A stretch of DNA of 64,000 nt from IMG/VR virus record IMGVR_UViG_3300042009_000026, positions 1-64,000 of that record, one strand, 5' to 3'. The DNA comes from a virus (Duplodnaviria > Heunggongvirae > Uroviricota > Caudoviricetes). The notes beneath the pieces are model-generated. The model made no database searches. It saw nothing but the letters and a program-made list of their open reading frames with translations, and was not told the origin of the DNA. Both the position numbers and the translations under genes were made by a program. Below, piece after piece: positions 245 to 62,670 of this stretch (its first letter is position 1; each line of letters begins with the position of its first letter).

Positions 245-1159
245 ATGTTCGAAGCAATTCACCGTTGGTTGTCTAAACGTCGTCTAGATAAAATTTATAC
301 TGATGAACGCTTTATCGATGAGATCCCATCGATCAATATTGGTTGGGAAGGAAGGGCTTACTTTGATCTATCTCAGGATGGGGAACGTACCGCATTCATT
401 ATGCCGTCGATGCAGTTCGTAGCACCAGACAGCATTCACGTTAATCCGGACAGTGTTGGATGGACAGAACGAAGCAAACCTTACAACACGTACCATCTCG
501 AAGCAGCTGAGAAAATAGCTAACTTCTTGAAGCTACGTAAAGCTCAATTGTGGTATGGCGTTCCTTTCTGCCGCGTAGATAGCGTAACGTATTATCTGAA
601 CTCCGATAGTATCCGTCCAAACTACGTTGTTCTTTATACGAGTTGGACAAAAGAAGTTCGTGTACCGAAGGCTGCCTTCAGTAACTTACTACATGACAAA
701 ATGTTGAAGCCTGACATCTATACGATGCATCCAATTGATCTGTCGACTCGAAGGAAAGCAGATGACTGGAAACCAATCATTGAAATGTTGCCGGGTACAC
801 AAGGAGTCAATTCAGCTTACACCGCACTGACCGATGTACCAGGCTGTCCAGGAGTATTGGATTTCCTGTGTAATGATATCGTTATCAATATCAATTGTCT
901 GGATAACAGTGCTCTGCCGATTGTTGACCTGGAACATTTCATTGCTGCCATTCGTGATGGGTTCCCCCATGTCTCCAATCGCTGGACATTAAACATCGAG
1001 CAGATTCAACTACAGATCGGCATGAACCCTAAACCGATCCGTGTCATTGACCTGGCATCTGAACTGAAAGACCATCGTATCATCTTGTCGGAAACGCCGA
1101 TGATACAAGACTGTGAAGAATACAAGAATACTGGTAACCTCTCAACAACTTATCCTTAA
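245..1159 (+). CDS. hypothetical protein (304 aa)
   Basis: Long ORF downstream of motif A; no recognisable motif. Confidence 0.6.
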   Translation: MFEAIHRWLSKRRLDKIYTDERFIDEIPSINIGWEGRAYFDLSQDGERTAFIMPSMQFVAPDSIHVNPDSVGWTERSKPYNTYHLEAAEKIANFLKLRKAQLWYGVPFCRVDSVTYYLNSDSIRPNYVVLYTSWTKEVRVPKAAFSNLLHDKMLKPDIYTMHPIDLSTRRKADDWKPIIEMLPGTQGVNSAYTALTDVPGCPGVLDFLCNDIVININCLDNSALPIVDLEHFIAAIRDGFPHVSNRWTLNIEQIQLQIGMNPKPIRVIDLASELKDHRIILSETPMIQDCEEYKNTGNLSTTYP

Positions 1160-7508: not shown

Positions 7509-8891
7509 ATGCTTATCCAAGAGATACTTAGTCTTTACCACACCACGTTGGAAATGCTTAGTTCCGGGGACTCTACTGTCAAGGGCTTCATGACGTTGGG
7601 TCTTATGGGTGTCTTGGGTTATTTGGGGCGCACCATACCCCAAACAATCTGGGCGTTCATCAAACGCAATACAATCTCATCGATGACGTTTACTCGTGCT
7701 GGTTCATATTCCATGGACATGCAGAACTACGTAGAATTCATGCGTTGGTTCTCGCAATCTAAATGGGCCAAATACGATCGTAACCGTCGTGTTACATTTG
7801 ATCGAGATAACCCAGCCTTCGGACCAGGTACCGGTTTCCATTGGTTTATTTGGAAAGGTCGTTACTTCTGGTTTAATGTAGTACGTTTGAATTCTTCCGG
7901 TACCGATATCGAGAAAGAAGAATTCACGCTGTATACATTCGGTCGTACTACTGCTCCATTCGAAGAGCTGGTGGAAGAGTTCCGTATTAAGCCGTGCAAG
8001 AAGTCGATCCGTATCTTTGCTCCGTCTAATGACGGTTGGAACTATCAGGGTCGGTTACGCCTGGATGCCGATGAAACATTGATCATTGACCCACAAGTAG
8101 AGAAAGAGTTCTTTGGCTCTATTGACTGGTATCTGGCGAATGAACCCTGGTACCGTAAACGTGGGTTGGCTTATAAGCACACCATCGTATTGCATGGCCC
8201 ACCTGGTACCGGCAAGACGTCATTGCTTAAACGGGCTGCACGTAAGTACAAGCGGGATATCCATTTCTTGAACTTGGCTACTCATGGGCGACAGCTAGTT
8301 GATCTGATGGGTAAGCTTTCTCCAGGTGATATTCTGGTCATTGAAGACTTCGATGATGTTAAGTCATTGCATCGACGCACTGGTCCGAAGAAAATGGAAG
8401 TGGGTGAACTGGACATCGGCGACAAGAAACCAGAAGCATTGTTGATGGACTGTGAGATCCAACTCAGTACGTTCCTCAATGTGTTGCAAGGTGTGGTAGA
8501 ACTGGATGACATCATTATTGTCCTGACTACTAACCATCTGGAACTGATCGACCCAGCAGTTTACCGTCCATCCCGTGTGAACAAGTTGATCGAAGTACTG
8601 CCCCTGAAAGATCCGGAAATCAAGCGTTATATCGACACGATGTATGATAATCCTACTTACGATCGTAATGTAATGTATCCAGATATACCAGCTTCTACAT
8701 TGGCCGGTATCTTCATGGAGTATCCAAGCGATCATCTGGCTTTCATTAATAAGCTAAATACGTTGGATGACAAATACGTCGCGGAGAACTACGCTCTACA
8801 GCCAGAGCCCCCGCGCCCTCCTATAAACAAGTCAGGCAAAGATGCCGCCCCAGCAGGGGAACGGGTCCTGGAACCACTAGAGGCAGCGTAA
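7509..8891 (+). CDS. AAA+ ATPase (BCS1-like architecture: N-terminal domain + single AAA module)
   Basis: Walker A GPPGTGKTS, Walker B ILVIEDFDD, sensor region TTNHLELIDPAVYRPSR. Confidence 0.8.
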   Translation: MLIQEILSLYHTTLEMLSSGDSTVKGFMTLGLMGVLGYLGRTIPQTIWAFIKRNTISSMTFTRAGSYSMDMQNYVEFMRWFSQSKWAKYDRNRRVTFDRDNPAFGPGTGFHWFIWKGRYFWFNVVRLNSSGTDIEKEEFTLYTFGRTTAPFEELVEEFRIKPCKKSIRIFAPSNDGWNYQGRLRLDADETLIIDPQVEKEFFGSIDWYLANEPWYRKRGLAYKHTIVLHGPPGTGKTSLLKRAARKYKRDIHFLNLATHGRQLVDLMGKLSPGDILVIEDFDDVKSLHRRTGPKKMEVGELDIGDKKPEALLMDCEIQLSTFLNVLQGVVELDDIIIVLTTNHLELIDPAVYRPSRVNKLIEVLPLKDPEIKRYIDTMYDNPTYDRNVMYPDIPASTLAGIFMEYPSDHLAFINKLNTLDDKYVAENYALQPEPPRPPINKSGKDAAPAGERVLEPLEAA

Positions 8892-12678: not shown

Positions 12679-14094
12679 ATGAAAGAATATTTGTCGATGC
12701 AACGTGAAGTACTGGAACGTGGTGTTCCTAAGGGTGACCGGACTGGGACTGGTACTATCTCTGCACCTGGTGTTAGTCGTACTTATGACATCAGTGGTAA
12801 TAAGTTAGCTGCAACATCTACCAAAAAGATCCATATCAAAACTGGTCAAGTCGAAGAAGACTGGATGCTATCCGGTGACACGCGACTGAAGTTCTTGAAA
12901 GACAACAACTGCAATATCTGGGATGAGTGGGTTCTTAAAGGCACTGGTATTTATCGTACCCGTACCGTCAAAGAAATGCGGCGAGTTTATACCCGTAACC
13001 ATTTCGGTTGGGCTGTGCCGACCATTTTAGATCCTAGTGCTACACCTGGTGAAACTGATGTTTGGAAGTTGGTCTATGATGGAGAAGATCTTTCGATCTG
13101 GGAATACCCCGCTGCAGCTGATGTAAAAGCACATCATGGCATCCAAGATAAATCCAAAGACAGTAAAAACTGGATGAATTGGTTTGAAAGAGAAGATCCA
13201 ATTTGGATTCGGTTTTATTCCGCACTAGGGATTTCCGATCAAGAAGTTGTAGATGGTGAACTCGGGAAAGTCTATGGCGAGATGTTCCGTAACATCGAAG
13301 ACACTCGTTTAGTTAAACCAGAAGAAGTAGATAGTTTTCTTCTGCGTGGTTTCAAGAACTGCGGGCCATTAGTAAATAGTGATCAATATGTGGTTACTCG
13401 CAATATCGATCAGGTTGCTAACCTGCTACATGACTTGGAACATAATCCGGATTCACGTCGTTTGATTCTGTGTCCATGGAATCCTGCATATGTAGATGAA
13501 CAGGCTTTGCCCCCATGCCATTCATTCATCCAGTTCTGGACACGTGAACTGACACCAGAACAGCGTTACCATATCTACTGTGCGCAGTATAAACGCGAAC
13601 AGAAAGAACTGCTGGAAGACATCGCTAAACGTAGTCGTGCTGACATCTATACTGCACATGTACCGTACCCATTGTCGTGCTTTGTTGAAGCCACTGATCG
13701 GGATATCGACTTCGATGAGTTTAAGTTACATACTTACTTGGATGAGCTCGATGTACCTCGCCGCGGTTTGACTTGCATTGTCTACATGCGATCTAACGAT
13801 GTTTTCTTGGGTGCGCCTTACAACCTGACATTTTATTCTTCGTTGACTCACAAACTGGCACACCAGTTTAACATGTATGGTGAGAAGTTGGTTCACTTTG
13901 TTGGTGATGCCCATATCTACCAGAACCATTTGGAACAAGTTGCAGAACAGCAGACCCGTACACCAGATCGGGACATGCCACGTCTGAAGATTAATGTGCC
14001 TAAAGGTACTTCGATCCTTGATATGAAGTTCACTGACTTGGAAGTAATCGGTTACAACCCTCAGGCGGCTATTGAAGCACCTGTAGCTGTCTAA
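12679..14094 (+). CDS. Thymidylate synthase (ThyA) family enzyme, dUMP-type, with two large insertions (471 aa vs ~264 aa)
   Basis: MKEYLSMQREVLERGVPKGDRTGTGT (ThyA N-term), NIWDEW, LPPCHSF catalytic Cys, RSNDVFLGAPYNL (Asn retained = dUMP specificity), DAHIYQNH, C-term IGYNPQAAIEAPVAV. Confidence 0.85.
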   Translation: MKEYLSMQREVLERGVPKGDRTGTGTISAPGVSRTYDISGNKLAATSTKKIHIKTGQVEEDWMLSGDTRLKFLKDNNCNIWDEWVLKGTGIYRTRTVKEMRRVYTRNHFGWAVPTILDPSATPGETDVWKLVYDGEDLSIWEYPAAADVKAHHGIQDKSKDSKNWMNWFEREDPIWIRFYSALGISDQEVVDGELGKVYGEMFRNIEDTRLVKPEEVDSFLLRGFKNCGPLVNSDQYVVTRNIDQVANLLHDLEHNPDSRRLILCPWNPAYVDEQALPPCHSFIQFWTRELTPEQRYHIYCAQYKREQKELLEDIAKRSRADIYTAHVPYPLSCFVEATDRDIDFDEFKLHTYLDELDVPRRGLTCIVYMRSNDVFLGAPYNLTFYSSLTHKLAHQFNMYGEKLVHFVGDAHIYQNHLEQVAEQQTRTPDRDMPRLKINVPKGTSILDMKFTDLEVIGYNPQAAIEAPVAV

Positions 14095-15601: not shown

Positions 15602-15670
15602 AAATATACCCGTGTTGATTATTGATTGCAGTGAAGTCTGCTGCTTTCAATAATCCACGAGGTGTATTCA

Positions 15671-17035
15671 ATGACTCAAGAAGTTGCTATAGCTGTAACC
15701 CCTGAACCTATCGTTCAGAAAGAAATTAAAGAAGGTTTCGGTGTTGTCGAGAAAGACCGGAAACTTGCACGTATCGTTATTATCGATGACGTAATTAAAC
15801 ACCCTAATGCCGATGCACTGGAACTCGCTGTAATTGGTGGCTGGCAGCTCTGTGTTAAATTGGGCGAATACAAGAAAGGCGATCGGGCAGTCTACTGTGA
15901 AATCGATTCCCTTTTGCCACTATCGAACATTGAACTATTCGGTTTCCTGGAAGAACGACGTTCTGATAACCGTCGTGTAGATGGTGTGAACTATCACCGT
16001 CTGAAGACTATCAAACTGCGTAAAGAAATCTCGCAAGGTTTGCTGGTTCCTGTTCCGAATAAATTCAAAGATGCTCCAGTCGATACCAACCTGACTTTGG
16101 AACTCGGTATCCTCAAGTACGAAGCACGCGCCCCAATGGAACCAGGTTCGAAAGAAGCCCGTGGATCTGATTGGTACTCGCGTTTGGTCCGCCGTATCCT
16201 GGGGAACATTGGTGGTACACTGCTACCATGGCCTGCCCAATTGATGAAGTCTGACCAGGATCGTGTACAGAACAAAACTGTTGCTTTCGCTACAGCTCAG
16301 GAAGAAGGTGAAGAGTTCGAAGTCACCTACAAACTCGATGGCCAATCGATGACTGTTTTCTGTATCGATGACAACGGTATTCGTACTGGTGTCTGCTCCC
16401 GTAACTACGAACTGGGTATCGGTGGCGGCAAATGGACTTTCGCTGAACAGGTCCGTTACTGGGTTGGTACATTCCTGGTGCGTAACCGTAGGATTCTCTC
16501 TTGGAAGAAAACCAAGAATGAGGAAGGCGATGTCAAGTTTAAGATTCGCTGGAATGGTGTGATCATCCCTGAGTGGAAAGCCAAGACTGAAGGTGGCGAT
16601 AACAACTATACCCGTACTGTTGCTAAGTACGGCATCATCGAGAAGTTGAAAGCTTACCAAGCTCGTACTGGTGAATTCATCAGCCTGCAAGGCGAACAGA
16701 TCGGTCCAGATATCCAATCTGGTTTCGAAGGTGTAGAAGAGCACGAATACCATGTCTTCAACGTATACCGCAATGGTAACGAAGAAGTACTGCCAGAAGA
16801 AGCTCGCGCAATCGTGGCTGAACTCGGTCTGACATACGTTCCAGTAATGCACGAACGTTTCGTAATCCCGAAAGAATGGACTGTTAAAGATATCTTGGCT
16901 ATGGCTGAAGGTCAACGTGCTTTCAATCAGAAGAAAGGTACCTACCGTGAAGGTGTCGTATTCAAGTCGCTGAAACGAGTAATGTCGTGGAAAGCAATTT
17001 CTACGGCATATTTGCTTAAAGTCAAAGACGAGTAA
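15671..17035 (+). CDS. ATP-dependent RNA ligase with N-terminal tRNA-binding-like (Myf/EMAP-type OB) domain
   Basis: N-term VIKHPNADALELAVIGG...GDRAVYCEIDSLLP resembles tRNA_bind OB domain; nucleotidyltransferase motif I TYKLDGQSMTVF (KxDG); GAGGTG RBS before ATG 15671. Confidence 0.7.
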   Translation: MTQEVAIAVTPEPIVQKEIKEGFGVVEKDRKLARIVIIDDVIKHPNADALELAVIGGWQLCVKLGEYKKGDRAVYCEIDSLLPLSNIELFGFLEERRSDNRRVDGVNYHRLKTIKLRKEISQGLLVPVPNKFKDAPVDTNLTLELGILKYEARAPMEPGSKEARGSDWYSRLVRRILGNIGGTLLPWPAQLMKSDQDRVQNKTVAFATAQEEGEEFEVTYKLDGQSMTVFCIDDNGIRTGVCSRNYELGIGGGKWTFAEQVRYWVGTFLVRNRRILSWKKTKNEEGDVKFKIRWNGVIIPEWKAKTEGGDNNYTRTVAKYGIIEKLKAYQARTGEFISLQGEQIGPDIQSGFEGVEEHEYHVFNVYRNGNEEVLPEEARAIVAELGLTYVPVMHERFVIPKEWTVKDILAMAEGQRAFNQKKGTYREGVVFKSLKRVMSWKAISTAYLLKVKDE

Positions 17036-25158: not shown

Positions 25159-25193
25159 GCTGCCCTTCGGGGCGGCTTTGTCTGTTTTTTTTT
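25159..25193 (+). terminator. Intrinsic terminator GCTGCCC-TTCG-GGGCGGC + T tract
   Basis: Seen directly. Confidence 0.8.
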
Positions 25194-25204: not shown

Positions 25205-25236
25205 AAAAAATCTCAGATCTATATTACTGTATTGAA
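25205..25236 (+). promoter_or_regulatory. Promoter-like motif A copy 3
   Basis: AAAAAATCTCAGATCTATATTACTGTATTGAA. Confidence 0.55.
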
Positions 25237-27208: not shown

Positions 27209-27502
27209 ATGAATGCTCGCACCACAGGCATGATCAACGCGCGCGAAAAGCTGCTTGGTGATCTACTTGATGCAAATCAACAAGTCCAAGATAAACTCGA
27301 TGACCAAGATCTTGGTTTTACCATTGATCAAGCTGTCGCAGTTAAAGGTGCTATCCAAGACACCACACTGTTGACGCTTCAGGCCATCGAGTCGCAAGCT
27401 CAGATTTTCCCGCATCAACCACCTGGAGTAAAACTGGGTAACCAACCCTTCTTTGATGACGATGAGTTATCGGAAGCTTATATTACTGCAATCAACTCGT
27501 AA
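27209..27502 (+). CDS. INS-tail family small protein (ends ...EAYITAINS)
   Basis: C-terminal [aromatic]-A-x-x-I-N-S-stop shared with 8 other ORFs. Confidence 0.5.
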   Translation: MNARTTGMINAREKLLGDLLDANQQVQDKLDDQDLGFTIDQAVAVKGAIQDTTLLTLQAIESQAQIFPHQPPGVKLGNQPFFDDDELSEAYITAINS

Positions 27503-27510
27503 GGAACAAC

Positions 27511-27759
27511 ATGGATACTGAAGAACTCGTTGAATCCGTTGCAGAGGCTAATGACCTCAAGCAGAAAGAAATTCTAGATGGCCTGGTCGGTATTCGTATC
27601 GAAGCAGAAGCCATGCCTCAAGTAGAAGGCATTCATCATGCGATCTCTGAAACTGCCCGGTTGTATGAAGGTGCATTCGTTCTGGAAGTAACAGCTAATG
27701 GCTGCGCTACAGAATTCATGGGTGCTGCTGATCGTTACCTGGAGTACGTCAACTCGTGA
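27511..27759 (+). CDS. INS-tail family small protein (ends ...RYLEYVNS)
   Basis: Shared C-terminal tail. Confidence 0.5.
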   Translation: MDTEELVESVAEANDLKQKEILDGLVGIRIEAEAMPQVEGIHHAISETARLYEGAFVLEVTANGCATEFMGAADRYLEYVNS

Positions 27760-28025
27760 TGCATTCTGTTCCTGATGCCAAAGTCATGTCTGCAGCAAAG
27801 CTATTCGTTGACTGGTCACGTAGTGTCGATGAAGACGATTTCGATGCTACAGCACAAGGGCTGGAAGCAGTCATGGATATTCTGGCTAAAGCAGAGATTA
27901 TCCCTCTTGATACTAAAGAGCGTTTGATTGCAACTATCGGTCGTCTTAACGATGAGGAAGATAAGCTGTCACTAGCTGAGTTCTTCGGAGAGACCCATGC
28001 CACTACCGCTACCACCGGAAACTGA
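27756..28025 (+). CDS. hypothetical protein (89 aa)
   Basis: ORF in same tightly coupled array. Confidence 0.45.
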   Translation: MMHSVPDAKVMSAAKLFVDWSRSVDEDDFDATAQGLEAVMDILAKAEIIPLDTKERLIATIGRLNDEEDKLSLAEFFGETHATTATTGN

Positions 28026-28608
28026 CTGGCCAGAGGACAGCAGCCTCGATTATGATGTTGCTAAAGAACTGGCTGAGTTGGGTATTCCGCACCCACCACA
28101 TGGGGGCCAAGGGCCTTGGATGGCTTATGAAACACCATCCTGGGCACTGAAACCAATGCGTGCAGAAATGCATGAATGTTACACCGAACTAATGGGGCGT
28201 GTAAAAAATGACGTCCCCATGCAATACCATGCAGTAATCAGTGATGTCGTACAAGAGGCAATTATTGACACTGCGATTATTATCAACAACAACGTTGATA
28301 TGATCGATGAATCTCACAATCATGTCTGGGGTTTACATCTGAACCTCTTTGACCACCCAATAGGAAGCACTGCAATGACTGACAAAATCGTAGAAGCCAA
28401 CGTTGAATCCCGTGATGTGCTGATCGTAGCAATCAATGATGTTCGTTCCCAAGCCAATGGTGAAGTCACCATCTCTGCTGCTGTTGATCTGGCTATCACC
28501 GGTACTGTGATCGCTGTTGAACAAGCTGTTCTCACCGGTGGTGTTGGTTCCGTTGTTGATCTGAACGAAGAACTGAACAAGAACTGGGCTGAAGCGGTAA
28601 ACTCTTAA
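27997..28608 (+). CDS. INS-tail family protein (203 aa; ends ...NWAEAVNS)
   Basis: Shared tail. Confidence 0.5.
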   Translation: MPLPLPPETDWPEDSSLDYDVAKELAELGIPHPPHGGQGPWMAYETPSWALKPMRAEMHECYTELMGRVKNDVPMQYHAVISDVVQEAIIDTAIIINNNVDMIDESHNHVWGLHLNLFDHPIGSTAMTDKIVEANVESRDVLIVAINDVRSQANGEVTISAAVDLAITGTVIAVEQAVLTGGVGSVVDLNEELNKNWAEAVNS

Positions 28609-28865
28609 TGACAGCTGTATATCTGGAAGAAAGTGGTCTGGGTGTAACACTCAAAAGCGATCGTGACTTTACCGTTATGGAAACGCTAGCGAAGTTTGCT
28701 GATAAAGGTATATCTACAGAGACCTTGACAGAAGTAGCGACCTTCACCGCTAATCGCGCTATCGAACATACCCTGGCCACGATTGAAACAACATTGTTGG
28801 CTGGTCGTAACGGTGGTGAAGATCCGGTGCTCGCTGCTGAATGGGCGGAGGCTATTAACTCTTAA
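28608..28865 (+). CDS. INS-tail family protein (ends ...EWAEAINS); paralog of next gene
   Basis: N-term YLEESGLGV vs SLKESGLFH in next ORF. Confidence 0.5.
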   Translation: MTAVYLEESGLGVTLKSDRDFTVMETLAKFADKGISTETLTEVATFTANRAIEHTLATIETTLLAGRNGGEDPVLAAEWAEAINS

Positions 28866-29149
28866 TGGCGCTATCCCTTAAAGAATCGGGACTGTTCCAT
28901 CTGTTTGACCGTGATCGTGACCAATTGGTTTGCGATGCATTCAAAGACGCACGTGCCGAGACTGGTGCTCTAACCACCGCCTCGGTCGTTGCAGCAATGG
29001 ATCACCTGTACGACAGAACAGTCGGACAAACGTTGTCCGCTTTAGATAGTGTGGGCTTCTTCACGATTGCCGACGTTAAAGCTGGAACAATCACCGATAT
29101 CGTAGAACAAGACATGGCGGACCAGTGGTTCGCTGCAATCAATTCGTAA
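28865..29149 (+). CDS. INS-tail family protein (ends ...DQWFAAINS)
   Basis: Shared tail and N-term with 28608 ORF. Confidence 0.5.
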   Translation: MALSLKESGLFHLFDRDRDQLVCDAFKDARAETGALTTASVVAAMDHLYDRTVGQTLSALDSVGFFTIADVKAGTITDIVEQDMADQWFAAINS

Positions 29150-29158
29150 GGAAACAAG

Positions 29159-29506
29159 ATGCTCCCTGTATATTGGCAAGGTAGTGTAATTGGCGCAGTC
29201 ATGGGCCTCATCGTGATCGCTGTGTTTGTTACATGGTTGATCCGTTCCAAAGCTGAATGGCTGGTGTGGTTTACTAAACGTACCCGCTGGTTGACTGCAG
29301 TATCGCTCCCGTTGATCTGGCTGCTTACATTCGTGAACATCGGTATCCACAATGTGGAAGGTGATCGTGCTAGCTTTGACCAAGTAGGTAAGTTAGTAGA
29401 TAAAGATATCCCTAAGGTTACTCGGGATACACTTTCGCCAGAATCCGTAAAGAAAGCAGCTGAAGAATCTCGCAAAGAGATCGATGCTGGTAATCTGAAC
29501 AAGTAA
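29159..29506 (+). CDS. membrane protein (115 aa, 2 TM helices)
   Basis: MLPVYWQGSVIGAVMGLIVIAVFVTWLI... Confidence 0.5.
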   Translation: MLPVYWQGSVIGAVMGLIVIAVFVTWLIRSKAEWLVWFTKRTRWLTAVSLPLIWLLTFVNIGIHNVEGDRASFDQVGKLVDKDIPKVTRDTLSPESVKKAAEESRKEIDAGNLNK

Positions 29507-29548
29507 TCCCCACGCTGTACACCATTCGAATTCAAAAGGAAATGTTGC

Positions 29549-30412
29549 ATGAAATTGCTGTCTGTTATCAAGTCTGCTGCACTCGCTATGATCGCTGTCG
29601 TTGCTCTGCAAGGCTGTTCATTCGAAGTCATCCCACCTGCCTTCAAAGGTAAGATTCTGACTACCTCTGGTTACAACCCAGAGATCCTGGAACCGGGTAA
29701 AGAAACCCTGTGGGGTCGTGATGAACTGGTGCTGCTGGAAACTGGCACTCGCACCGTTGCTGAAACCATTACCGTGAAGATGGAAGACAAACTCGACTTG
29801 ACCTTCGACGTTCGTTTCCGTACTCGCATCGGTGGTGACAAGAAAGTCCTGAACCAAATGTTCAATGACATTCAAGTCAAAGAAAAGCGTGTGACCCTGC
29901 AGCAAGTCTACGGCGTGTATGGTCTTGACGTGGTACAATCGGTATCCCGTTCGGTTGTTGGTAAATACAAAACCGAAGACGTCGGTGCTAACTTCGACAA
30001 GATCACTGCTGACCTCGCTGATCGTCTCGTGAAAGCAATGGCTAACTCGCCACTGGAAGTATCGAACGTCACTCTGGGTAACCTGAAGTATCCGAAGGTT
30101 ATTACTGAAGCGATCGAGAAACAACAAGAGCGCCTGCTGGCAATCGAAACTGAAACTAACCAACAGGCTATCGAAACAGTTAAGCGTGATAACCAACTGC
30201 GATTGGCTCAACTGGACCGTGATATCGAACTGACCAAAGCCAAGACTCTGCGTGACGCGAACGCCATCACTGCTGACGGCCTGAGCCCTGCACTGTTGCA
30301 ATACCGTGCTCTTGACGTACAAGAGAGAATGGCTGAGAACGATGCTGCTGTATTCGTACCATACGAAGCTTTTGGTACCGCTGGCATGTCTAATCGCATG
30401 TTCAGCAAGTAA
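29549..30412 (+). CDS. SPFH/band-7 (stomatin/prohibitin-like) lipoprotein
   Basis: Lipobox ...VVALQGC; SPFH-like beta region then long coiled-coil QQERLLAIETETNQQAIETVKRDNQLRLAQLDRDIELTKAK; antisense 366-aa ORF rejected. Confidence 0.65.
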   Translation: MKLLSVIKSAALAMIAVVALQGCSFEVIPPAFKGKILTTSGYNPEILEPGKETLWGRDELVLLETGTRTVAETITVKMEDKLDLTFDVRFRTRIGGDKKVLNQMFNDIQVKEKRVTLQQVYGVYGLDVVQSVSRSVVGKYKTEDVGANFDKITADLADRLVKAMANSPLEVSNVTLGNLKYPKVITEAIEKQQERLLAIETETNQQAIETVKRDNQLRLAQLDRDIELTKAKTLRDANAITADGLSPALLQYRALDVQERMAENDAAVFVPYEAFGTAGMSNRMFSK

Positions 30413-30414
30413 TA

Positions 30415-30770
30415 TGAATGACACGATCCAAATGTCTGAGCGCTTACAGAAGGCACTTGGTAGTATCTCCGATGCACGTAAGCAAGCTGAATATGATCGT
30501 GTAGCCCATCGAAATATCTTCATGGGTGCGATCGTTGAAGGATTGGCTGAGAAAGGCAACAGTGGTACATTCTTCGAGGGTAACAAGGAGGCAGCTACTG
30601 CACACCGAGTTGGTCTACGTGAAGGTGCTGCTGTTGTTATGAGTGTTATCGATCGAATGGACGCAAGTCTTGAGATTGATGAACATTGTATTAACCTGCA
30701 AGCCAATGATGATTTCACTTATACAACGGTTTCAATGGAAGCAGCATTTGCTGCATCTATTAACTCCTAA
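30415..30770 (+). CDS. INS-tail family protein (ends ...AAFAASINS); paralog of 31972 ORF
   Basis: Start trimmed to ATG 30415; shared tail. Confidence 0.5.
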
Positions 30771-30775
30771 CAGAC

Positions 30776-30812
30776 GCCTCCCTTCGGGGAGGCTTTCTGC
30801 CATTTTCTTTTG
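30776..30812 (+). terminator. Hairpin GCCTCCC-TTCG-GGGAGGC + U-rich tract
   Basis: Seen directly. Confidence 0.65.
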
Positions 30813-31090
30813 TGAGCTTACAGATGAGCCAATACGAAAAAGCATTTGAAAATATTCATCGGGATATCTCTTGCGGAAGTTATGCACGTAACAGCCCATG
30901 TCCAATTGACCAGCGTTATGCAGATGGCTTGGATGAAGGCATGCGGCATGGTGTAAGAGTTACGCTAGATATCTTGGAACTCCATGGCCACTTGGTGAAC
31001 GAGGAAGCCGGTAAAGTATCGATCCAGAACCAATGGGATGGTTGGTACCACACTATGCTCGATGAACATGTCGACGTTATTAACGGATAA
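30812..31090 (+). CDS. hypothetical protein (92 aa)
   Basis: ORF. Confidence 0.45.
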   Translation: MSLQMSQYEKAFENIHRDISCGSYARNSPCPIDQRYADGLDEGMRHGVRVTLDILELHGHLVNEEAGKVSIQNQWDGWYHTMLDEHVDVING

Positions 31091-31095
31091 ACAAA

Positions 31096-31344
31096 ATGAT
31101 ACCCACCTCAAATGAATTCTTTGTTGGTTTAGTGGGACATATTGCTAAATTTACCAGTGATGATACTGAAGATGGTTTAGCGCTAATCCATGAAGGTGCG
31201 GCAATGACTCTGGACTACATCGCTCTGCAAACAATTCGTGATAACCCAACAGGTGATCACTCAGATGTTGTAACAATGTCTGAATGTTTTCTGCAACATG
31301 TAGAGATGTTCTATAAGAGCCCAGAAGAACTAGCCGCGGAATAA
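31096..31344 (+). CDS. hypothetical protein (82 aa)
   Basis: ORF. Confidence 0.45.
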   Translation: MIPTSNEFFVGLVGHIAKFTSDDTEDGLALIHEGAAMTLDYIALQTIRDNPTGDHSDVVTMSECFLQHVEMFYKSPEELAAE

Positions 31345-31518
31345 AACACGCATAGACATTCTCTATGTACTAACACCCTCGGAACACGGACACCATGAAA
31401 CAGAAAATCATTGCCTTCTTCTACGAATATCGTAAGCCTATCGGTCTTGCTCTCGTAGGTGGATGCTATATCGCTTTCGCAACTCTCTCTGGCCTCAGCT
31501 GACAAAAGGAAAACTGTA

Positions 31519-31977
31519 ATGTCTCCCGCTCTTATTCTCTCCCTCGCCGCTATCGTAATCATTCTACTCGTTGCCTACTATGCGTGGGTTGGTCTCATCA
31601 ATGCTACTGGTGGTAGCTTGAAAGAATGGGTAGATAGTGACTTTCCTGAAATCAAGCATACGCCGAAAGCGACATGGTTGACTGGATTTAAATATCGACA
31701 ACATGGCTTGTCTATTAAAGCTAAGTTGGATGTACCGATCTGCCTGGAGTATGATCAGCAAGAATACCTCGGTCGGTTCTCAGTGGTTGATACATTCGCC
31801 CGTTCAACTAGCCCATTGGATGGTGCAGACCAGAATCATGAAAAAGATCTAGTTGCCTATGACTACGGTCTGGAGCTGGAACTTATGAAAGGTGGTCAGA
31901 TCGCAATGCGTGTGGTCTATAACCGTATTAGTATTACTGACATCGAACCAATCATTGAGGACTCTGCCTGTGAGTGA
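31519..31977 (+). CDS. membrane-anchored protein (N-terminal TM)
   Basis: MSPALILSLAAIVIILLVAYYAWVGL; start trimmed from ORF-track 31459. Confidence 0.45.
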   Translation: MSPALILSLAAIVIILLVAYYAWVGLINATGGSLKEWVDSDFPEIKHTPKATWLTGFKYRQHGLSIKAKLDVPICLEYDQQEYLGRFSVVDTFARSTSPLDGADQNHEKDLVAYDYGLELELMKGGQIAMRVVYNRISITDIEPIIEDSACE

Positions 31978-32323
31978 CTATCCAAAAGCTACCAAAGTGG
32001 AACTTGAAAAAGCGTACGCCTTGGTTAATGAACTAGAAAAAGAACTTGTAGCTGATGCACAGATGGCTCGTGGGATATTGTTCGCAGAGATCCAAGCTAA
32101 CGTATTGGATCAGAACCCACCTAAGTTTGATAAAGGGGCAACCATGACTCAAGCTTTCCGGATGGGATTGGATCGTGGTGTAGACTGTGTATTGAATGCA
32201 GTAGACACACGGAGTATCCTGATGATCGATGGTAACGACCGAATGCTTAATGTGGACATCACCAGTGATGGTCCCGACATGTTGCCACTGGTAGACCTGT
32301 GGGCCTCCTACATTAATAGCTAG
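31972..32323 (+). CDS. INS-tail family protein (ends ...DLWASYINS); GTG start
   Basis: Paralogous to 30415 ORF (AQMARGILFAEIQANVLDQ vs RVAHRNIFMGAIVEGLAEK). Confidence 0.45.
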
Positions 32324-32931: not shown

Positions 32932-32970
32932 GCCTCTCCTTCGGGAGAGGCTTTATGTTCTTTTTTTTTT
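32932..32970 (+). terminator. Intrinsic terminator GCCTCTCC-TTCG-GGAGAGGC + T10
   Basis: Seen directly. Confidence 0.85.
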
Positions 32971-32986: not shown

Positions 32987-33010
32987 CGCCTATATTACTT
33001 TTGTGGATTC
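32987..33010 (+). promoter_or_regulatory. Promoter-like motif (CGCCTATATTACTTTTGTGGATTC), duplicate cassette of 19454
   Basis: Sequence identity to 19441-19479. Confidence 0.5.
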
Positions 33011-34614: not shown

Positions 34615-34909
34615 AGCGTTACAGTGGGAACTCGACTGGGTTGATGCTAACCCAGATCGATATGAAGGCCCATGGCACCGTGAACTGGTGAAACGGAACA
34701 TAAAGGCTCGCTATGCAGCGAACCAATTATTCAAGGGTGAAGTGATTTACATCAAACGTCCTGAGACCCGTTACAAGTACTTGGGTCAGTCCATGGGTGC
34801 GGGGTGGCGACGTGATGAACGGCTATTCGTTTATTGGGATGCTGAAAAAGGTCAACTGTTCCATCGGGAACGAGAAGACTTCAAAGAACAAATGGGGCAT
34901 TGTAAATGA
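34601..34909 (+). CDS. hypothetical protein (102 aa)
   Basis: Coupled ORF. Confidence 0.5.
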
Positions 34910-36138
34910 AGACACTAGTTTATAAAGTAGGTGGAGCTGTACGAGATCGACTGCTGGGTATTCCTGTAACCGATGTAGACTGGGTAGTGGTTGGTTCTAC
35001 TGCCGAGGAAATGTTGGCGCAAGGCTATCGCTCAGTAGGTTCTGATTTTCCTGTATTCATACATCCAGAGTCGAATGAGGAATATGCTCTGGCTCGTACT
35101 GAGCGTAAAACAGGAGCTGGCTATGGTGGCTTCACATTTCATGCCAGCAATGAAGTCACTCTCGAAGAAGACTTGGCACGGCGTGATCTTACGATCAATG
35201 CAATAGCTGAAGATGCTGAATTGAATCTGACTGATCCTTACGGCGGACTACGCGATTTGGATGCACGCATCCTACGTCATGTTTCTCCGGCTTTTGCTGA
35301 AGATCCAGTTCGTGTCTTGCGGGTTGCACGCTTTGCAACTCGGTACGCTAAGAAGGGGTTCCAAGTTGCACCTGAGACCATGGCGCTCATGCGGGGACTC
35401 AGTGAGTCTGGTGAACTAAGTGCATTAACAGCTGAGCGGATCTGGAAAGAAGTTTCCCGTGCACTGATGGAAGATAAGCCACAAGTCTTCATTGAAGTAC
35501 TACGTGAATGCTCAGCCCTTAAGGTATTGCTACCTGAGGTTGATGCGTTGTTCGGTATACCTCAACCAGCAGTACATCATCCAGAAATCGATACCGGTAT
35601 CCATGTTCTGAGTGTATTGGAACAATCTGCTTTGTATAAACAGCCGTTAACTGTACGTTGGGCTTGTTTGATGCATGACTTAGGGAAAGGCTTAACTCCA
35701 TCTGAAGAATGGCCACGACATATCGGTCATGAAAAAGCTGGGGTTGCTTTGATCAAGAATGTTAACCAGCGATTCAAAGTACCAAAGGACTGTCAAGAGT
35801 TAGCAGTGTTTGTTGGCCAGTACCATACCAACAGCCATAAAGCATTTGAGCTTACTCCATCAAAACTGTTAGCACTCATGCATAGCTTTGATGTATACCG
35901 TCGTCCTCATCGGTTTGAAGAGTTTATTGCTGCTTGTGAGATGGACGCACGTGGCCGCCTAGGACTTGAAGATAGAGATTATCCTCAAGCAGATTACCTA
36001 CGTGGAGCGATGACAGCTGTACGTAATGTGTCTATCCAACATCTGTTGGAGAAAGGCCTGAAAGGTGCTGTTCTTGGCGATGCAATTCGACTGGAACGAC
36101 TTAATGCTTTGAAGGCACATAAGAAGGCAAACAAATGA
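34906..36138 (+). CDS. cca: tRNA nucleotidyltransferase (CCA-adding enzyme), class II with HD phosphohydrolase domain
   Basis: [30 protein letters not shown] (pol-beta head), HD motif LMHDLGKG; length 410 aa as E. coli Cca. Confidence 0.85.
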
Positions 36139-39331: not shown

Positions 39332-39616
39332 ATGCTCAGCACGCTCCTAAAAATGACAGTCCGCGGAATCGCAGCATCCAAAGTAGAACCGGGTATGGTA
39401 TTAACTGCAGCACGTGATATATTCGTTACCATTCTTGATAGACGTGGGGCACACCACGATATCTTGTTTGCTAACGAAGGGGATCAGGTCCGAGTAGAAG
39501 CACCTGATTGTTGCCGACCAGGCGACTTGTTTGTTTGTTCTAATGTTGACAACTTTGATGAAGTTGCCTCCGTAAATCCACATGACCTCGAAGACATGCT
39601 CAAGGAATATACCTGA
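39332..39616 (+). CDS. hypothetical protein (94 aa)
   Basis: ORF. Confidence 0.45.
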   Translation: MLSTLLKMTVRGIAASKVEPGMVLTAARDIFVTILDRRGAHHDILFANEGDQVRVEAPDCCRPGDLFVCSNVDNFDEVASVNPHDLEDMLKEYT

Positions 39617-39954
39617 TGCAATTTAATAGCCTATATGAATACATCGACCAAACCTACGATGTACAACTGGATAAAGAATTTCTAAAGAAAGAAGCTCCCG
39701 GTCTGACTTATGTCAAACTGGTCCGAGTTCTTTCACAATTGAGGATCAGTGTGGTTGGTATGACTGCCGACCAACTGTTCTTTGAAGCAGTACGTTATGA
39801 ACGTAATCTAATCGGCCAAGAACAAAAACGTCTTGAGCTTATGTTCCAGCTCGCCGATCTACACGAAATCATCGAAACCCTTATTCGTAAGTCAGGAAAG
39901 AAAAGCAATGACCAATTCGACGACAATCTCTTCGCCCAAGACATTAATAGCTAA
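39616..39954 (+). CDS. INS-tail family protein (ends ...NLFAQDINS)
   Basis: Shared C-terminal tail. Confidence 0.5.
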   Translation: MQFNSLYEYIDQTYDVQLDKEFLKKEAPGLTYVKLVRVLSQLRISVVGMTADQLFFEAVRYERNLIGQEQKRLELMFQLADLHEIIETLIRKSGKKSNDQFDDNLFAQDINS

Positions 39955-54331: not shown

Positions 54332-55660
54332 TTAACCTTTTACGCAGAGAATTTGTTTGAGGGTATGGACAACGTCCACAAGTTCGGCTTGAGCTGACAT
54401 TACGTCATCGATGTTCTTGTAAGCCTTTGGTGTTTCATCGAGTACGCCAATATCTTTACGGCATTCCACACCAGCGGTATCACGGATGTGATCTTCCAGA
54501 GTGAACACTTTCTCAGCTTGAGTACGGGACATTACACGACCTGCTCCATGCGAACACGAGCAGAACGATTCACGTTGACCTTTACCACGAACGATGAAAG
54601 ACTTAGCGCCCATCGAACCAGGGATGATCCCGAGAGTACCTTTGTCGGCGTTTACTGCACCCTTACGCGTTACCAGGACGTTCTGACCGAAGTGACGTTC
54701 TTCTGATACGTAGTTGTGGTGACAGTTGATTGCAGACATGTCCGAATCGATTGGCAGACCCAAGGTCTTGTGGATAGCACCCAGAGTAGCATGCATCATG
54801 ATTGAGCGATTGAGTGCAGCAAACCGTTGTGCCCAGGACACTGCTTCGATGTAATCATTGTAATACACGGAACCTTCTGGTAGATAAGCAAGATCACCAT
54901 CTGGTAGGTGAATGAAGAAACGTTTCATTTCTTCTTTTGCTTTCGCGATGAAGTACGTACCGATGGCATTACCGATACCACGAGAACCGGAGTGCAACAT
55001 TACCCAAACCTGATCGGTTTCATCCAGACAGATTTCGATGAAGTGGTTCCCTGTACCGAGCGTACCTACGTGGTTCCATGCCCGAGCTGCTGCTTTCGAC
55101 AGCTTAGGATGACGCTCTACAATCGAGGACAAATGCTTACGTAGCTTCTCTGCTTCGTCACGGATCTCTTTGACCTGGTGATCGAATACGTTTACTTTAC
55201 CAAATGCACCACGGTCGTTAGGGCCACCGTTGTCAGTGCGGCCATGAGGCACTGAGGCTTCGATAGCGGCGCGCAAATGACCCAGAGACTCAGGTAGTGC
55301 TGTGGACTTAAAAGTAAGGCGCTGTGCAGCCATACCGCATCCGATATCAACACCTACTGCGGATGGAATGATCGCACCTTTGGTGGCAACCACAGAACCA
55401 ATGGTGGCACCTTTGCCCAAGTGTACATCAGGCATCACAGCGATGTGTGAGTAGATGAATGGAAGAGCGGCAATGTTCTTCAATTGCTGGATTGCTTCTT
55501 TTTCGACTGGTACGCCGACGGTCCAGCCTTTGATTGGTTTCGAACCTTCTTCTACGGTATCACCAATCAGTTCAAATGTTTTCTGTTTCATAAAAGCCTC
55601 ACGCGGATGGAAAGAGGAATTGTTACATACACTGACTTTGCCAGTATTATTAAACGGCAT
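54332..55660 (-). CDS. rtcB: RNA-splicing ligase RtcB (3'-phosphate/2',3'-cyclic phosphate RNA ligase)
   Basis: MHSGSRGIGNAIG (GTP-binding), metal-binding His/Cys-rich segments, CHHNY; 442 aa. Confidence 0.85.
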   Translation of the reverse strand: MPFNNTGKVSVCNNSSFHPREAFMKQKTFELIGDTVEEGSKPIKGWTVGVPVEKEAIQQLKNIAALPFIYSHIAVMPDVHLGKGATIGSVVATKGAIIPSAVGVDIGCGMAAQRLTFKSTALPESLGHLRAAIEASVPHGRTDNGGPNDRGAFGKVNVFDHQVKEIRDEAEKLRKHLSSIVERHPKLSKAAARAWNHVGTLGTGNHFIEICLDETDQVWVMLHSGSRGIGNAIGTYFIAKAKEEMKRFFIHLPDGDLAYLPEGSVYYNDYIEAVSWAQRFAALNRSIMMHATLGAIHKTLGLPIDSDMSAINCHHNYVSEERHFGQNVLVTRKGAVNADKGTLGIIPGSMGAKSFIVRGKGQRESFCSCSHGAGRVMSRTQAEKVFTLEDHIRDTAGVECRKDIGVLDETPKAYKNIDDVMSAQAELVDVVHTLKQILCVKG

Positions 55661-57762: not shown

Positions 57763-57840
57763 TGGTGCCGACATTCGGAATCGAACCGAAGACCTACCGC
57801 TTACAAGGCGGTTGCTCTGACCTAGCTGAGCTATGTCGGC
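57763..57840 (-). tRNA. tRNA-Thr (anticodon UGU), CCA encoded
   Basis: Manual cloverleaf: acceptor GCCGACA/UGUCGGC, loop CUUGUAA, T-loop UUCGAUU. Confidence 0.8.
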
Positions 57841-57841
57841 A

Positions 57842-57928
57842 TGGAGCTAAGAGAGGGATTTGAACCCCCGATGATCTTTCGAAACAGGATTTGCAATCCC
57901 GTGCATTCGTCCACTCTGCCATCTCAGC
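57842..57928 (-). tRNA. Type-II (long variable arm) tRNA with anticodon GCA (Cys codons) - atypical
   Basis: Manual fold: acceptor GCUGAGA, 3-bp D stem, anticodon stem CGGGA/UCCUG loop UUGCAAA, 15-nt variable arm, T-loop UUCAAAU, U73, CCA. Confidence 0.55.
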
Positions 57929-57935
57929 TTTAATT

Positions 57936-58023
57936 TGGCGGAAGCATAGAGATTCGAACTCTAGGGGCTGTTACACCCGACGGTTTTCAAGACCGTTGCC
58001 TTAAGCCACTCGGCCATGCTTCC
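57936..58023 (-). tRNA. tRNA-Ser (anticodon UGA), type II, CCA encoded
   Basis: Loop CUUGAAA, D-arm GCC-GAGUGGCUUAA-GGC, long variable arm, G73. Confidence 0.8.
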
Positions 58024-58038
58024 TGTGTTGCTTTTGTT

Positions 58039-58124
58039 TGGTGCGGACAGAGAGACTCGAACTCTCACGCCCTAAGGGCGCTGGAACCTAAATCCAGTGC
58101 GTCTACCAATTCCGCCATGTCCGC
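58039..58124 (-). tRNA. tRNA-Leu (anticodon UAG), type II
   Basis: Loop UUUAGGU, D-loop AAUUGGUAGAC, A73 CCA. Confidence 0.75.
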
Positions 58125-58130
58125 TGTGTA

Positions 58131-58215
58131 TGGTGCCCGAAGCGAGATTCGAACTCGCGATCCTGAAAGGCGGGAGATTTTAAGTCTCCAGTGTATGCCG
58201 CTCCACCATTCGGGC
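58131..58215 (-). tRNA. tRNA-Leu (anticodon UAA), type II
   Basis: Loop CUUAAAA, stem GGAGA/UCUCC, long variable arm, CCA. Confidence 0.7.
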
Positions 58216-59164
58216 GTGTAACTAAATTCATTCCCAGCATCCAGGATTCATGCCCTGGTTATCTGCTTATGCAGTGTAGATCGCCGCTGGGCGAGCTTTT
58301 CATCCTAGTACATAGCCTCGACTAAAATCGAAACCGGCGAGCTAGGTCTATCTACGTACTTGCCTACAACGCTTCAGTGTGATGGAGGGCAAGTAAAAGA
58401 ATCGAGGGAACCCGCTACACGCTTTGCTTAGATGGTGTTTAAACCAAATGCCGAGTAGCTCATTCCATGGGTGTATTCTAGTATACACGCAACTGCCTTT
58501 CAGCCGTCTCGTCGATTACCAGTCGCAACTGGTTCTCTGTGTATGGCCCAGTAGCCTCTTTACGGGAGTCATCTACTGGGAAGGTTACCACTACAGGACT
58601 TTCACCTTCTGTGGCCTGGCATTCCAACCAGTTCATGTAACCAAGACGGAATTGACTAATCCGTTGTAGCCGAGTCATCACGCTTCTTCGGTATGGGCGC
58701 CTTAATAATCAGGACTATCCGATCTTTGGGGTATTTGGGGTACGGGCATCGAGTTTCCCTGTTATTCCACTATTCTAGTCTTTTGTGGAACGTCATTGGG
58801 TATTATTCGTAGATCCATACAAGTGCAACTCTGCGCCCTAGTCTGAGGATTAATCAGACACCTGTATAGATCCGAGCCTATCCCTTTCAGGCTAGGACTT
58901 CACCAAGTCAATGGACTCAGTGTATGTGGAAGTTTGATGGAACGATCCTCTACCTTCATCTATTCGGACTCAGGCGACCTTTTCAGCACAGTGGGGTGGA
59001 GTGCACTTACCCAACATCCTGCCATGTCTTTCACATGCTTGTTGAAAAAGATGTAACGATCTAACCTCTTAACGCTAGTCGGCAGCTTTCCCGATTCACG
59101 CAACCTTTACCGAACACTGGAGGCAACTACCTTACCCAATATCCGAACATCTTATTCATACGCT

Positions 59165-59839: not shown

Positions 59840-59861
59840 TGTTACTCTCTTTTAAATAAGC

Positions 59862-59930
59862 GAGGGTGTCCTAGGCCACTAGACGAACTGCCCCGAAGGA
59901 CAGTACCGGGGTCGAACCGATGTTTCCCTC
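59862..59930 (-). ncRNA. Non-canonical tRNA-like cloverleaf element between tRNA-Trp and ORF 59839
   Basis: On minus strand: outer stem GAGGG/CCCUC enclosing T-arm-like hairpin (AUCGG-UUCGACC-CCGGU), 7-bp hairpin ACUGUCC-UUCG-GGGCAGU, and D-arm-like hairpin (CUAG-UGGC-CUAG). Confidence 0.3.
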
Positions 59931-59936
59931 TATCAC

Positions 59937-60012
59937 TGGCGGGCATGACAGGACTTGAACCTATAACATCTGGCTTTGGAGGCCAGCGTTCTGCCAATTG
60001 AACTACACACCC
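59937..60012 (-). tRNA. tRNA-Trp (anticodon CCA)
   Basis: Stem CUGGC/GCCAG loop CUCCAAA, T-loop UUCAAGU, CCA encoded. Confidence 0.7.
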
Positions 60013-60126
60013 TAAAACTTGGTCGGGTTTTTGTTAAACCAGGCTAACCGATATCCCTGGTCCCTATCGAGTAAGCTCTAGGGGAGTCTTACTCTTACGC
60101 TCGTTTGGAGACTTAACGACAGTCTC

Positions 60127-60140: not shown

Positions 60141-60153
60141 ACTCCCAGTAATT

Positions 60154-62110: not shown

Positions 62111-62527
62111 TTATGAATTAATTGCATTGATGTAGAACATGTCAAATCGTTCTGTACCCATTGGACTAATCGAATAGAACCCTGCTTCAATACGGTCGTG
62201 TTCTTCTCTGTGGCAGTTCGCACAGAGTAATAGACATTTGTCTAATTCTACTTTTATTCGATCAAAAGATTTTGTTCCACCCGATGTACTGATACCGAAT
62301 TCCTTTTCATCTGGATCAGCATGATGGAATTCAAGAGCACTTGGATTAGAACAGTATCCGCAATCGTTGCACGCGCCGCCTTTATATTCAATCGATAGAA
62401 CTTTTAATTTCCTGCGTCTATCGCTTACGGCTATGGACATGCATTTCATACAACGCCATTTAATTTGATTACCTGCACGGAAAGATCTGTATGTTACCAT
62501 TCCGTGGACTTTACATTCTTTCTGCAT
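62111..62527 (-). mobile_element. HNH homing endonuclease carrying the INS C-terminal tail (ends ...MFYINAINS)
   Basis: CNDCGYCSNPSALEFHHADP...LLCANCHREEH (HNH); C-terminal AINS. Confidence 0.65.
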
Positions 62528-62664: not shown

Positions 62665-62670
62665 ATGAAG

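Follow-up and report, generated by a model that had tools for sequence, protein, structure and literature searches.

A conserved C-terminal tail ending in [IV]-N-S was identified on nine proteins encoded in a 64,000-nucleotide stretch of a tailed phage (Caudoviricetes; positions 1 to 64,000 of IMG/VR record IMGVR_UViG_3300042009_000026), which is referred to here as the window. The tail-bearing genes are clustered at positions 27,209 to 32,323, with further members elsewhere in the window. Judged from sequence comparison, the tail is probably a modular docking peptide for one common partner, with which it would co-evolve. A shared docking or targeting peptide had been proposed in the initial annotation of this DNA. 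The proposal was borne out as far as a conserved terminal element that is modular, is better conserved than the bodies carrying it and covaries within genomes; candidate readers of the tail are an ATPase, a clamp, the capsid, a protease or the import machinery.

Tail-bearing open reading frames

All nine open reading frames (ORFs) to which an [IV]NS terminus had been ascribed exist and end as described. The gene of family A (27209..27502, plus strand) encodes a protein of 97 amino acids (aa) with an isoelectric point (pI) of 4.1 and the C-terminal end …DDDELSEAYITAINS (AYITAINS). Its tail is retained by orthologs in the Pseudomonas phages D6 and Psa21 and in five IMG/VR phages. The products of family B (27511..27759, plus strand; 82 aa, pI 4.2) and family C (27997..28608, plus strand; 203 aa, pI 4.3) end in …AADRYLEYVNS and …NKNWAEAVNS, respectively. 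The family B tail is kept in seven phages and in Pseudomonas phage RVTF4. In family C, conservation is restricted to the C-terminal ~75 aa and the tail, and the N-terminal portion is variable; a homolog of only 79 aa in the Pawinskivirus HPP-Temi has the terminus SWYEDVNS. Family D is present in two copies, of which copy 1 (28608..28865, plus strand) encodes 85 aa ending in …AAEWAEAINS and is a paralog of copy 2 (28865..29149, plus strand), which encodes 94 aa ending in …ADQWFAAINS.

Family E (30414..30770, plus strand) encodes 118 aa with the end …MEAAFAASINS, and its gene is followed immediately on the 3' side by a GC-rich hairpin and TTT. Family F (31970..32323, plus strand) has a GTG start after GAGGA and encodes 117 aa ending in …LVDLWASYINS; its product is a 100% match to the database protein P0002 (117 aa). 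Most of the starts assigned earlier were right, but those of families E and F move from 30415 to 30414 and from 31972 to 31970, the latter on the basis of the GTG codon, the GAGGA and the identity to P0002. Outside the cluster, family H (39616..39954, plus strand) encodes 112 aa with the C-terminal end …SGKKSNDQFDDNLFAQDINS (LFAQDINS), and …INS is retained in its orthologs from seven phages. The ninth gene (62111..62527, minus strand) encodes an HNH homing-type endonuclease of 138 aa with a 25-aa C-terminal extension that ends in …ERFDMFYINAINS (FYINAINS).

The ORF at 30812-31090 (plus strand, 92 aa), which lies within the cluster, is a near miss that ends in …EHVDVING, with G replacing S/T, and was not counted. 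No ending like …HVDVING was found in the related loci examined. Scans of the nine tail proteins and the near-miss ORF, including family A, against Pfam and PHROG gave no match, the HNH endonuclease excepted.

Frequency of the ending and codon usage

The frequency of the ending was evaluated among ORFs of at least 30 aa in the six frames of the window (686-688 ORFs). Beyond the nine, none of these ORFs ends in [IV]NS. The number of such endings expected from composition is 0.22 for all ORFs and 0.04 for the ~123 genes, against nine observed, and the Poisson probability of at least nine among the ~123 genes is roughly 6e-19. Within proteins, [WYF]xxx[IV]NS occurs once, with 0.57 expected, which is the chance level; only the C-terminus shows enrichment.

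The codons of the tail vary. Serine is encoded by TCG, TCT, TCC, TCA and AGC, isoleucine by ATC and ATT, valine by GTC and GTA, and asparagine by AAC and AAT, and third-position identity over the last three codons is 0.33. This diversity indicates that the conserved object is a peptide and that selection acts on the protein rather than on the DNA. The opposite view, that the ending is a by-product of a DNA signal (a ribosome-binding site, translational coupling, a terminator or a repeat) or of miscalled ORFs, could appeal to tail genes that abut or overlap the following start, such as those with TAATG at 28606-28610 and 28863-28867. Its probability is nevertheless negligible, given serine codons of both the TCN and AGC types, the low third-position identity, unlike downstream contexts, tails retained in orthologs from phages with scarcely alignable DNA, and the same ending on independently called database proteins. 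A ribosome-binding site, coupling signal or repeat at the DNA level was ruled out by the codon differences together with the conservation in orthologs. The initial annotation had allowed that the ending might occur at chance frequency or that the INS ends might be artefacts; neither holds, since nine endings stand against about 0.2 expected, the codons vary and the orthologs keep the tail.

Source phage, distribution and family K

Nucleotide matches of the window are patchy and are to the Pseudomonas phages Psa21, D6 and RVTF4. The D6 genome has genes for a PhuZ tubulin, for internal head proteins and for multisubunit RNA polymerases in split form. Psa21, which the National Center for Biotechnology Information places in Tepukevirus, Chimalliviridae, has a chimallin homolog (gp105) and a PhuZ homolog. 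The window belongs to a nucleus-forming jumbo phage of ~315 kb, a chimallivirus akin to Psa21 and D6.

Orthologs from D6, Psa21, RVTF4 and five IMG/VR relatives all carry the tail. Phage D6 has seven annotated tail genes among 424 annotated features; six are syntenic with the window and the seventh, WDS62196, is an ortholog of phiKZ gp186 (30% identity, E 1e-17). In phiKZ, gp186 is the sole tail-bearing gene and ends in …SFFEDVNS. The uncharacterised family formed by phiKZ gp186 and PhiPA3 gp222 is referred to here as family K. Its members are of ~140 aa, and the end …LGDEFANINS is near-invariant in Psa21-like phages. One member, P0016, lies outside the window on the same 317-kb Joint Genome Institute contig as P0002, the protein identical to family F; the source phage thus has at least 10 tail proteins.

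A hidden Markov model (HMM) search with family K recovered 46 cluster representatives, which end in L-F-[DAE]-[DE]-[IVL]-[NS]-[STNG], with the pattern decaying in the remotest members. Named members include those of PS119XW, PA1C and BRkr (…LFEEVNT) and PhiPA3 gp222 (…LFDEISN), and a structure search adds members in KTN4, Phabio and Noxifer, all uncharacterised. With seven tail carriers in D6, one in phiKZ and seven in PhiPA3, the carriers are a small specific client set and not a general feature of the proteome.

Diversity of the protein bodies

Clustering by BLASTP of the tail ORFs of seven genomes gave eight ortholog groups (families A to H), the HNH endonuclease and one further protein. 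Family G is not in the window, whereas family D is duplicated there, the products of 28608 and 28865 (D1 and D2) clustering together. Families E and F are linked by hhalign with a probability of 69%, which falls to 33% without the tail. When the last 12 residues were removed, profile-profile comparison linked only families E, F and G (probability 33-62%), whose alignment confirms a common core; all remaining tail-less pairs, those with family K included, scored 13.5% or less.

The description of the set as a paralogous family therefore does not hold, as body homology is limited to D1/D2 and E/F(/G). The accompanying observation that the N-terminal parts differ except in the sub-pairs 28608/28865 (by BLASTP) and 30414/31970 (by profile comparison and alignment) is correct. 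Body lengths of the small carriers range from 82 to 203 aa. In all eight ortholog groups the last 3-7 residues are better conserved than the body, and identity over the last three residues is 0.83-1.00, compared with 0.34-0.74 for the bodies of the eight families; purifying selection is therefore stronger on the peptide than on the body. The motif appears to be confined to the extreme C-terminus of proteins whose bodies are, by these comparisons, unrelated.

Addition of the tail to an HNH endonuclease

The HNH endonuclease at 62111-62527 matches PF01844 with 24.6 bits (cutoff 21.4) and PHROG 2255 with E = 3e-29, and CxxC…HH…N…CH is invariant in its alignment with the proteins of Klebsiella phage Muenster and Escherichia phage WPEC5. 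This HNH family is present in hundreds of phages. In Muenster, WPEC5 and five IMG/VR phages, the protein ends no more than six residues past NCHREEHD. The 25-residue extension with the tail is found in only one other HNH copy, that of a Psa21-like phage (93% identity). Homologs without the extension indicate that the tail was added onto a pre-existing HNH enzyme, and on this comparison the tail is modular. The gene is inserted in a cluster of 10 tRNA genes (57763-63717, minus strand). Together with this cluster, the genes for RtcB (54332-55660), an RNA ligase (15662-17035) and a CCA-adding enzyme (34906-36138) resemble a set for tRNA repair and maintenance.

Covariation of the tail within genomes

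The form of the tail differs between phage groups, and the family K protein and the accessory proteins of one genome differ together. In Psa21-like phages, family K ends in …FANINS and the accessory tails are mostly …INS. In Pawinskivirus, family K ends in …LFEEVNT, and all five adjacent accessory genes of the HPP-Temi locus end in VN[ST]. In PhiPA3, family K ends in …LFDEISN, and the ending [WF]xx[IV]S[NSG] is shared by the clustered gp306, gp308, gp311, gp312 and gp313 and by an ORF that lacks annotation; chance would give about 0.24 endings of this kind, against the six accessory ORFs observed, and the PhiPA3 census contains no [IV]N[ST] tail. Position -2 is occupied by N in Psa21-like phages, Pawinskivirus and phiKZ and by S in PhiPA3, in family K and accessory proteins alike. 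At -3, every Pawinskivirus tail found has V (I versus V, Fisher P = 0.007).

Two PhiPA3 proteins, gp306 and gp313, are orthologous over their full length to HPP-Temi proteins that end in …LVNS and …SVNT (E 4e-24 and 2e-17, respectively). Since the tail type of an ortholog switches with the genome, the variant follows the genome and not the protein family. Such covariation is expected if all tails fit one partner or mimic the family K tail, and is hard to explain by independent structural caps. The unannotated PhiPA3 ORF (NC_028999, 228581-228769, plus strand) lies between gp241 and gp242, encodes 62 aa ending in …NTNFADISN and may be a missed gene.

Sequence features and predicted structure of the tail

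A profile of the tail was compiled from 64 distinct tails, drawn from the window and from eight genomes or loci related to it. Position -11 is L, M or I, -10 is A and -9 is D or E; position -7 is W, Y or F, -6 is A, I, V or F and -5 is E or A. Position -3 is I or V, -2 is N in 64/64 tails and -1 is S or T. These residues describe a putative acidic amphipathic helix of ~12 residues and three turns, with hydrophobic residues at i, i+4 and i+8 and acidic residues between them. Segments containing Gly or Pro usually lie 12-20 residues before the C-terminus. Acidity is common to all eight small carriers, whose pI values of 4.1-5.0 compare with a window median of 6.7.

AlphaFold2 (AF2) models were considered for two families. 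Family F is modelled as two long helices, and its tail helix (102-116) has low confidence, with a predicted local distance difference test (pLDDT) value of ~50. Family K has a terminal helix at 122-138 with pLDDT ~85. In both models a segment of lower pLDDT (105-121 in family K) precedes the tail helix.

Several known classes of terminal signal were compared with the tail. The Q-L-x-L-F pattern of the sliding-clamp-binding motif QL[SD]LF was not seen in the composition of the last 20 residues. Degrons of the ssrA/ClpX type have non-polar last residues, whereas 64/64 tails end in N-S or N-T, with acidic residues at -9/-5. A membrane-targeting amphipathic helix was set aside on the indirect ground of charge, as the tail is acidic whereas known bacterial membrane-targeting amphipathic helices are cationic. 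Type I and type IV secretion signals were considered and dropped; the tail is distributed along phage lineages, and the sets of hosts are different.

Published data on tail-bearing proteins

Gene 186 of phiKZ has been termed an "early expressed transcript" in a preprint. In an antisense screen of phiKZ, knockdown of gp186 gave the strongest class of plaque loss; the ChmA read-out of this screen is a multi-round assay and does not date the block. The gp186 protein has been detected in infected cells (supplement of a size-exclusion chromatography-mass spectrometry study). The literature found on gp186 consists of this screen and this detection, and nothing on it was found in the ribosome-targeting paper or the transposon preprint.

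The 42 top proximity-labelling hits obtained in PhiPA3 with the baits ChmA and/or RecA include gp222, gp308 and gp313, or 3/7 of the PhiPA3 tail proteins (hypergeometric P = 0.03). The fusions gp222-GFP and gp313-GFP (GFP, green fluorescent protein) were diffuse in the cytoplasm, and GFP-gp308 formed cytoplasmic puncta (PMC10643120). According to Supplementary Tables 3 and 7 and the primers of that study, GFP directly follows …ISN of gp222 and gp313, which masks the tail, whereas gp308 was tagged at the N-terminus and its tail was free. Because a C-terminal GFP masks the tail, the localisation data obtained in this way are unusable against a function of the free C-terminus. Published work on chimallivirus import indicates that cargo is recognised through PicA/Imp1 by its folded surfaces and not by a terminal signal. 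No description of the tail motif was found in the literature searched.

Proposed function of the tail and alternative explanations

In the proposed mechanism, the tail would act as a docking helix with a free C-terminus, in which a hydrophobic stripe at -11, -7/-6 and -3 is closed by N-S/T-COOH, and it would usually be tethered to the body by the linker containing Gly or Pro. Unrelated small acidic early proteins and one homing endonuclease would be attached through the tail to one common partner. Family K (phiKZ gp186) would be the prototype bearer, and accessory early proteins in Psa21-like, Pawinskivirus-like and PhiPA3-like phages would have acquired or kept a K-like tail directed to the same binding site. 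Candidate partners are a host protein, a phage protein or the family K body itself; if it is the last of these, the accessory tails would compete with or add to the helix of family K. The comparisons show the enrichment and terminal position of the motif, selection on the protein, modularity, conservation across lineages and covariation within each genome; from these we infer that the tail binds at all, that the free carboxyl end is important and that there is a single hub.

Some points weigh against this proposal. Partner binding by the tail is deduced from sequence. The C-terminal helix of family K, modelled with fair confidence, could pack on its own body and be structural. The family alignments are shallow (7-16 sequences), so that a very remote common fold is possible. 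Remote K homologs without the last two residues (…LFDDL, …MFDEI) show that a strict N-S-COOH end is not universal. Covariation could partly reflect recombination that spreads a 3' gene segment within a genome, although the different codons of the tails argue against recent transfer of this kind.

The structural possibility can be extended to all carriers, which would then be highly diverged paralogs of one small helical fold, each with the tail as an intramolecular helix C-cap and with no common partner. Asparagine is a common helix C-cap residue, the terminal helix of the family K model (122-138) is confident, E/F/G and D1/D2 are genuine paralogs, and shallow alignments leave room for more distant kinship. 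The explanation is nonetheless unlikely: no homology is detectable between the tail-less families A, B, C, D, H and K, whose bodies span 82-203 aa; the tail is an add-on in the HNH endonuclease that its homologs do not have; the tail helix of family F, at pLDDT ~50, is not confidently packed; and covariation across unrelated families within a genome would be unexpected. In another alternative, the tail would be a degron or an adaptor handle for a host or phage AAA+ protease or unfoldase and would clear early proteins once their task is over, or host proteins bound to them. The layout of body, linker and peptide resembles that of SspB with its ClpX-binding tail, an early-type motif stands at the head of the operons with the tail genes, a BCS1-like AAA ATPase (7509-8891) is among the proteins of the phage, and a Fic-antitoxin motif in Psa21 gp352 suggests that bodies bind host proteins. 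The final residues of known C-terminal degrons are non-polar (ssrA …LAA), whereas the tail is acidic with a polar N-S end; the BCS1-like ATPase is widespread in jumbo phages without the tail set, including those that form no nucleus; and phiKZ gp186 is detectable as a protein and is needed for plaques, which would be unexpected if it were made only for degradation. We regard a role in proteolysis as improbable on this balance.

It is quite unlikely that the tail is a sorting signal to the phage nucleus, for import or shell association, or to another phage-made compartment. The phage is a chimallivirus, the tail was gained by an HNH endonuclease that must reach phage DNA, gp222, gp308 and gp313 of PhiPA3 are overrepresented among the hits of the nuclear baits, and the fusion with a free tail (GFP-gp308) was punctate, whereas those with a masked tail were diffuse. 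Against this, DNA polymerase, RNA polymerase and RecA have no tail in the D6, phiKZ and PhiPA3 censuses, published import depends on folded surfaces read through PicA/Imp1, gp222-GFP and gp313-GFP were cytoplasmic (with the tail masked by the tag), and the GFP-gp308 puncta were cytoplasmic and not nuclear. A related and likewise doubtful possibility is that the tail is a transferable address label that needs a free C-terminus and is read by a phage-encoded machine, for which the PicA/Imp import adaptor, a shell- or vesicle-associated receptor and the BCS1-like AAA translocase are candidates. If this were true, a foreign HNH enzyme and changing early effectors would be "licensed" by gaining ~12 residues, the label would be the first terminal signal for sorting found in a bacterial organelle system built by a virus, and earlier localisation screens would have missed it through C-terminal GFP that masks the tail.

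For the carriers themselves, an effector or anti-defence role is plausible, with hints from the small acidic proteins, the early-type operons and a Fic-antitoxin motif in one relative. Psa21 gp352 (L011:13104-13472) and the protein encoded at L015:12385-12828 are tail-bearing G-family proteins with an N-terminal YhfG-type Fic-antitoxin motif, …FERNKLRNFQASSKLEGIDL…. The match of Psa21 gp352 to PF10832 is 25.3 bits (cutoff 22.6), which suggests that some bodies may bind and inhibit host enzymes such as Fic.

The docking peptide proposed here would matter in several respects. Chimalliviruses have hundreds of orphan genes and few handles for grouping them by function, and a covarying tail defines a concrete client set of about 10 proteins in the source phage, seven in D6, seven in PhiPA3 and one in phiKZ. 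It points to a single hub that would include or bind phiKZ gp186, which the antisense screen found to be required for plaques, and it would explain how a mobile endonuclease was adapted to this phage lineage. As a caution, the C-terminal tags of published localisation screens probably inactivate tail proteins. Should the hub prove to be a host factor, early host takeover could be studied or blocked by way of the tail. The docking hypothesis is directly testable with a 14-residue peptide.

Comparison with known C-terminal peptides

Short acidic C-terminal peptides with key hydrophobic residues and a flexible linker are found in the bacterial SSB tip (…DDDIPF-COOH) and in T7 gp2.5 and gp4, whose acidic C-terminal tails are interchangeable; these peptides dock on a shared partner, as is proposed for the present tail. 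The T7 case is the closer in that equivalent tails occur on two different proteins. The SSB and T7 tails end in an aromatic residue, are unstructured and belong to replication proteins, whereas the present tail ends in N-S, is predicted to be helical and is carried by small orphan early proteins. The SspB and ssrA peptides share the arrangement of body, linker and short C-terminal peptide, which a single machine reads, and one tag can serve many proteins, but their last residues are non-polar or basic (…LAA, …LRVVK); nothing was found that links the tail to a protease or unfoldase.

The presence of one conserved tripeptide at the very C-terminus of diverse proteins also recalls the eukaryotic PTS1 (-SKL) and KDEL signals, and the phage nucleus has selective import. 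Unlike these systems, no terminal signal is reported in the chimallivirus literature, and known nuclear proteins are without the tail. The phiKZ gp186 family carries the same tail (…SFFEDVNS in phiKZ, …LGDEFANINS in D6 and the source phage and …LFEEVNT in PS119XW). C-terminal docking peptides are a known class; the motif, its clients and the tie to the phiKZ gp186 family appear to be new.

Operon context and neighbouring genes

The operon containing families A to F is headed by a phiKZ-type early-promoter-like motif, TATATTAC, at 25220..25227 (plus strand), downstream of a terminator-like hairpin at 25159-25176. It is closed by a terminator-like hairpin at 32932..32951 (plus strand), and the next TATATTAC follows at 32991-32998. 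The motif occurs 10 times in the window, with two expected, and nine copies are on the plus strand. Plus-strand copies are at 204, 1195, 6012, 19457, 25220, 27479, 32991, 45809 and 50384, and the minus-strand copy is at 62837. The copy at 27479 lies within gene A, in the tail codons for AYIT. Single-strand counts also exceed expectation in D6 (23 against 5.8), PhiPA3 (19 against 5.9) and phiKZ (33 against 15), and the motif is found upstream of operons with family K and tail clusters in other phages. A full-text literature search for TATATTAC returned no phage paper. The motif is likely a conserved early-promoter core, in view of the measured enrichment and strand bias; the octamer is reported to be the core of phiKZ early promoters (Ceyssens et al. 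2014).

An SPFH/band-7 lipoprotein with the lipobox LQGC is encoded at 29549-30412 (plus strand), between families D and E. The gene is 60-88% identical to genes of PAK_P3-like phages of ~88 kb, Erwinia phages Joad and RisingSun and Klebsiella phage Miami, and it is also present in two IMG/VR phages of ~90 kb; all these SPFH phages are without tail proteins. On this distribution it looks like a horizontally shared accessory gene that is independent of the tail proteins around it. The initial annotation had linked it to the tail array, a link that is not supported in view of the many unrelated phages that have the SPFH gene and lack tail proteins. The lipoprotein was accordingly rejected as a part of the system, given its occurrence in PAK_P3-like, Joad-like and Miami-like phages.

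The BCS1-like AAA ATPase (7509-8891, plus strand) is a protein of 460 aa with BCS1_N and AAA domains and is annotated as a "cell division protein" in D6 and Psa21. BCS1 itself is the AAA translocase that carries a folded protein in mitochondria. The phage protein has homologs in many jumbo phages (among them phiKZ gp285/286 and PhiPA3 gp347), phages that form no nucleus included. A clade-specific tail receptor of this kind is unsupported, as the homologs are widespread in jumbo phages that include non-chimalliviruses.

The window further contains many small plus-strand genes and encodes NAMPT and a thymidylate synthase in addition to the RNA ligase, the CCA-adding enzyme, RtcB and the tRNA cluster. 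The thymidylate synthase (12679-14094, plus strand) is of 471 aa, of which only ~275 PHROG profile positions are covered, implying a large insertion relative to ordinary ThyA. The annotated thymidylate synthase genes of D6 and phiKZ are of similar length.

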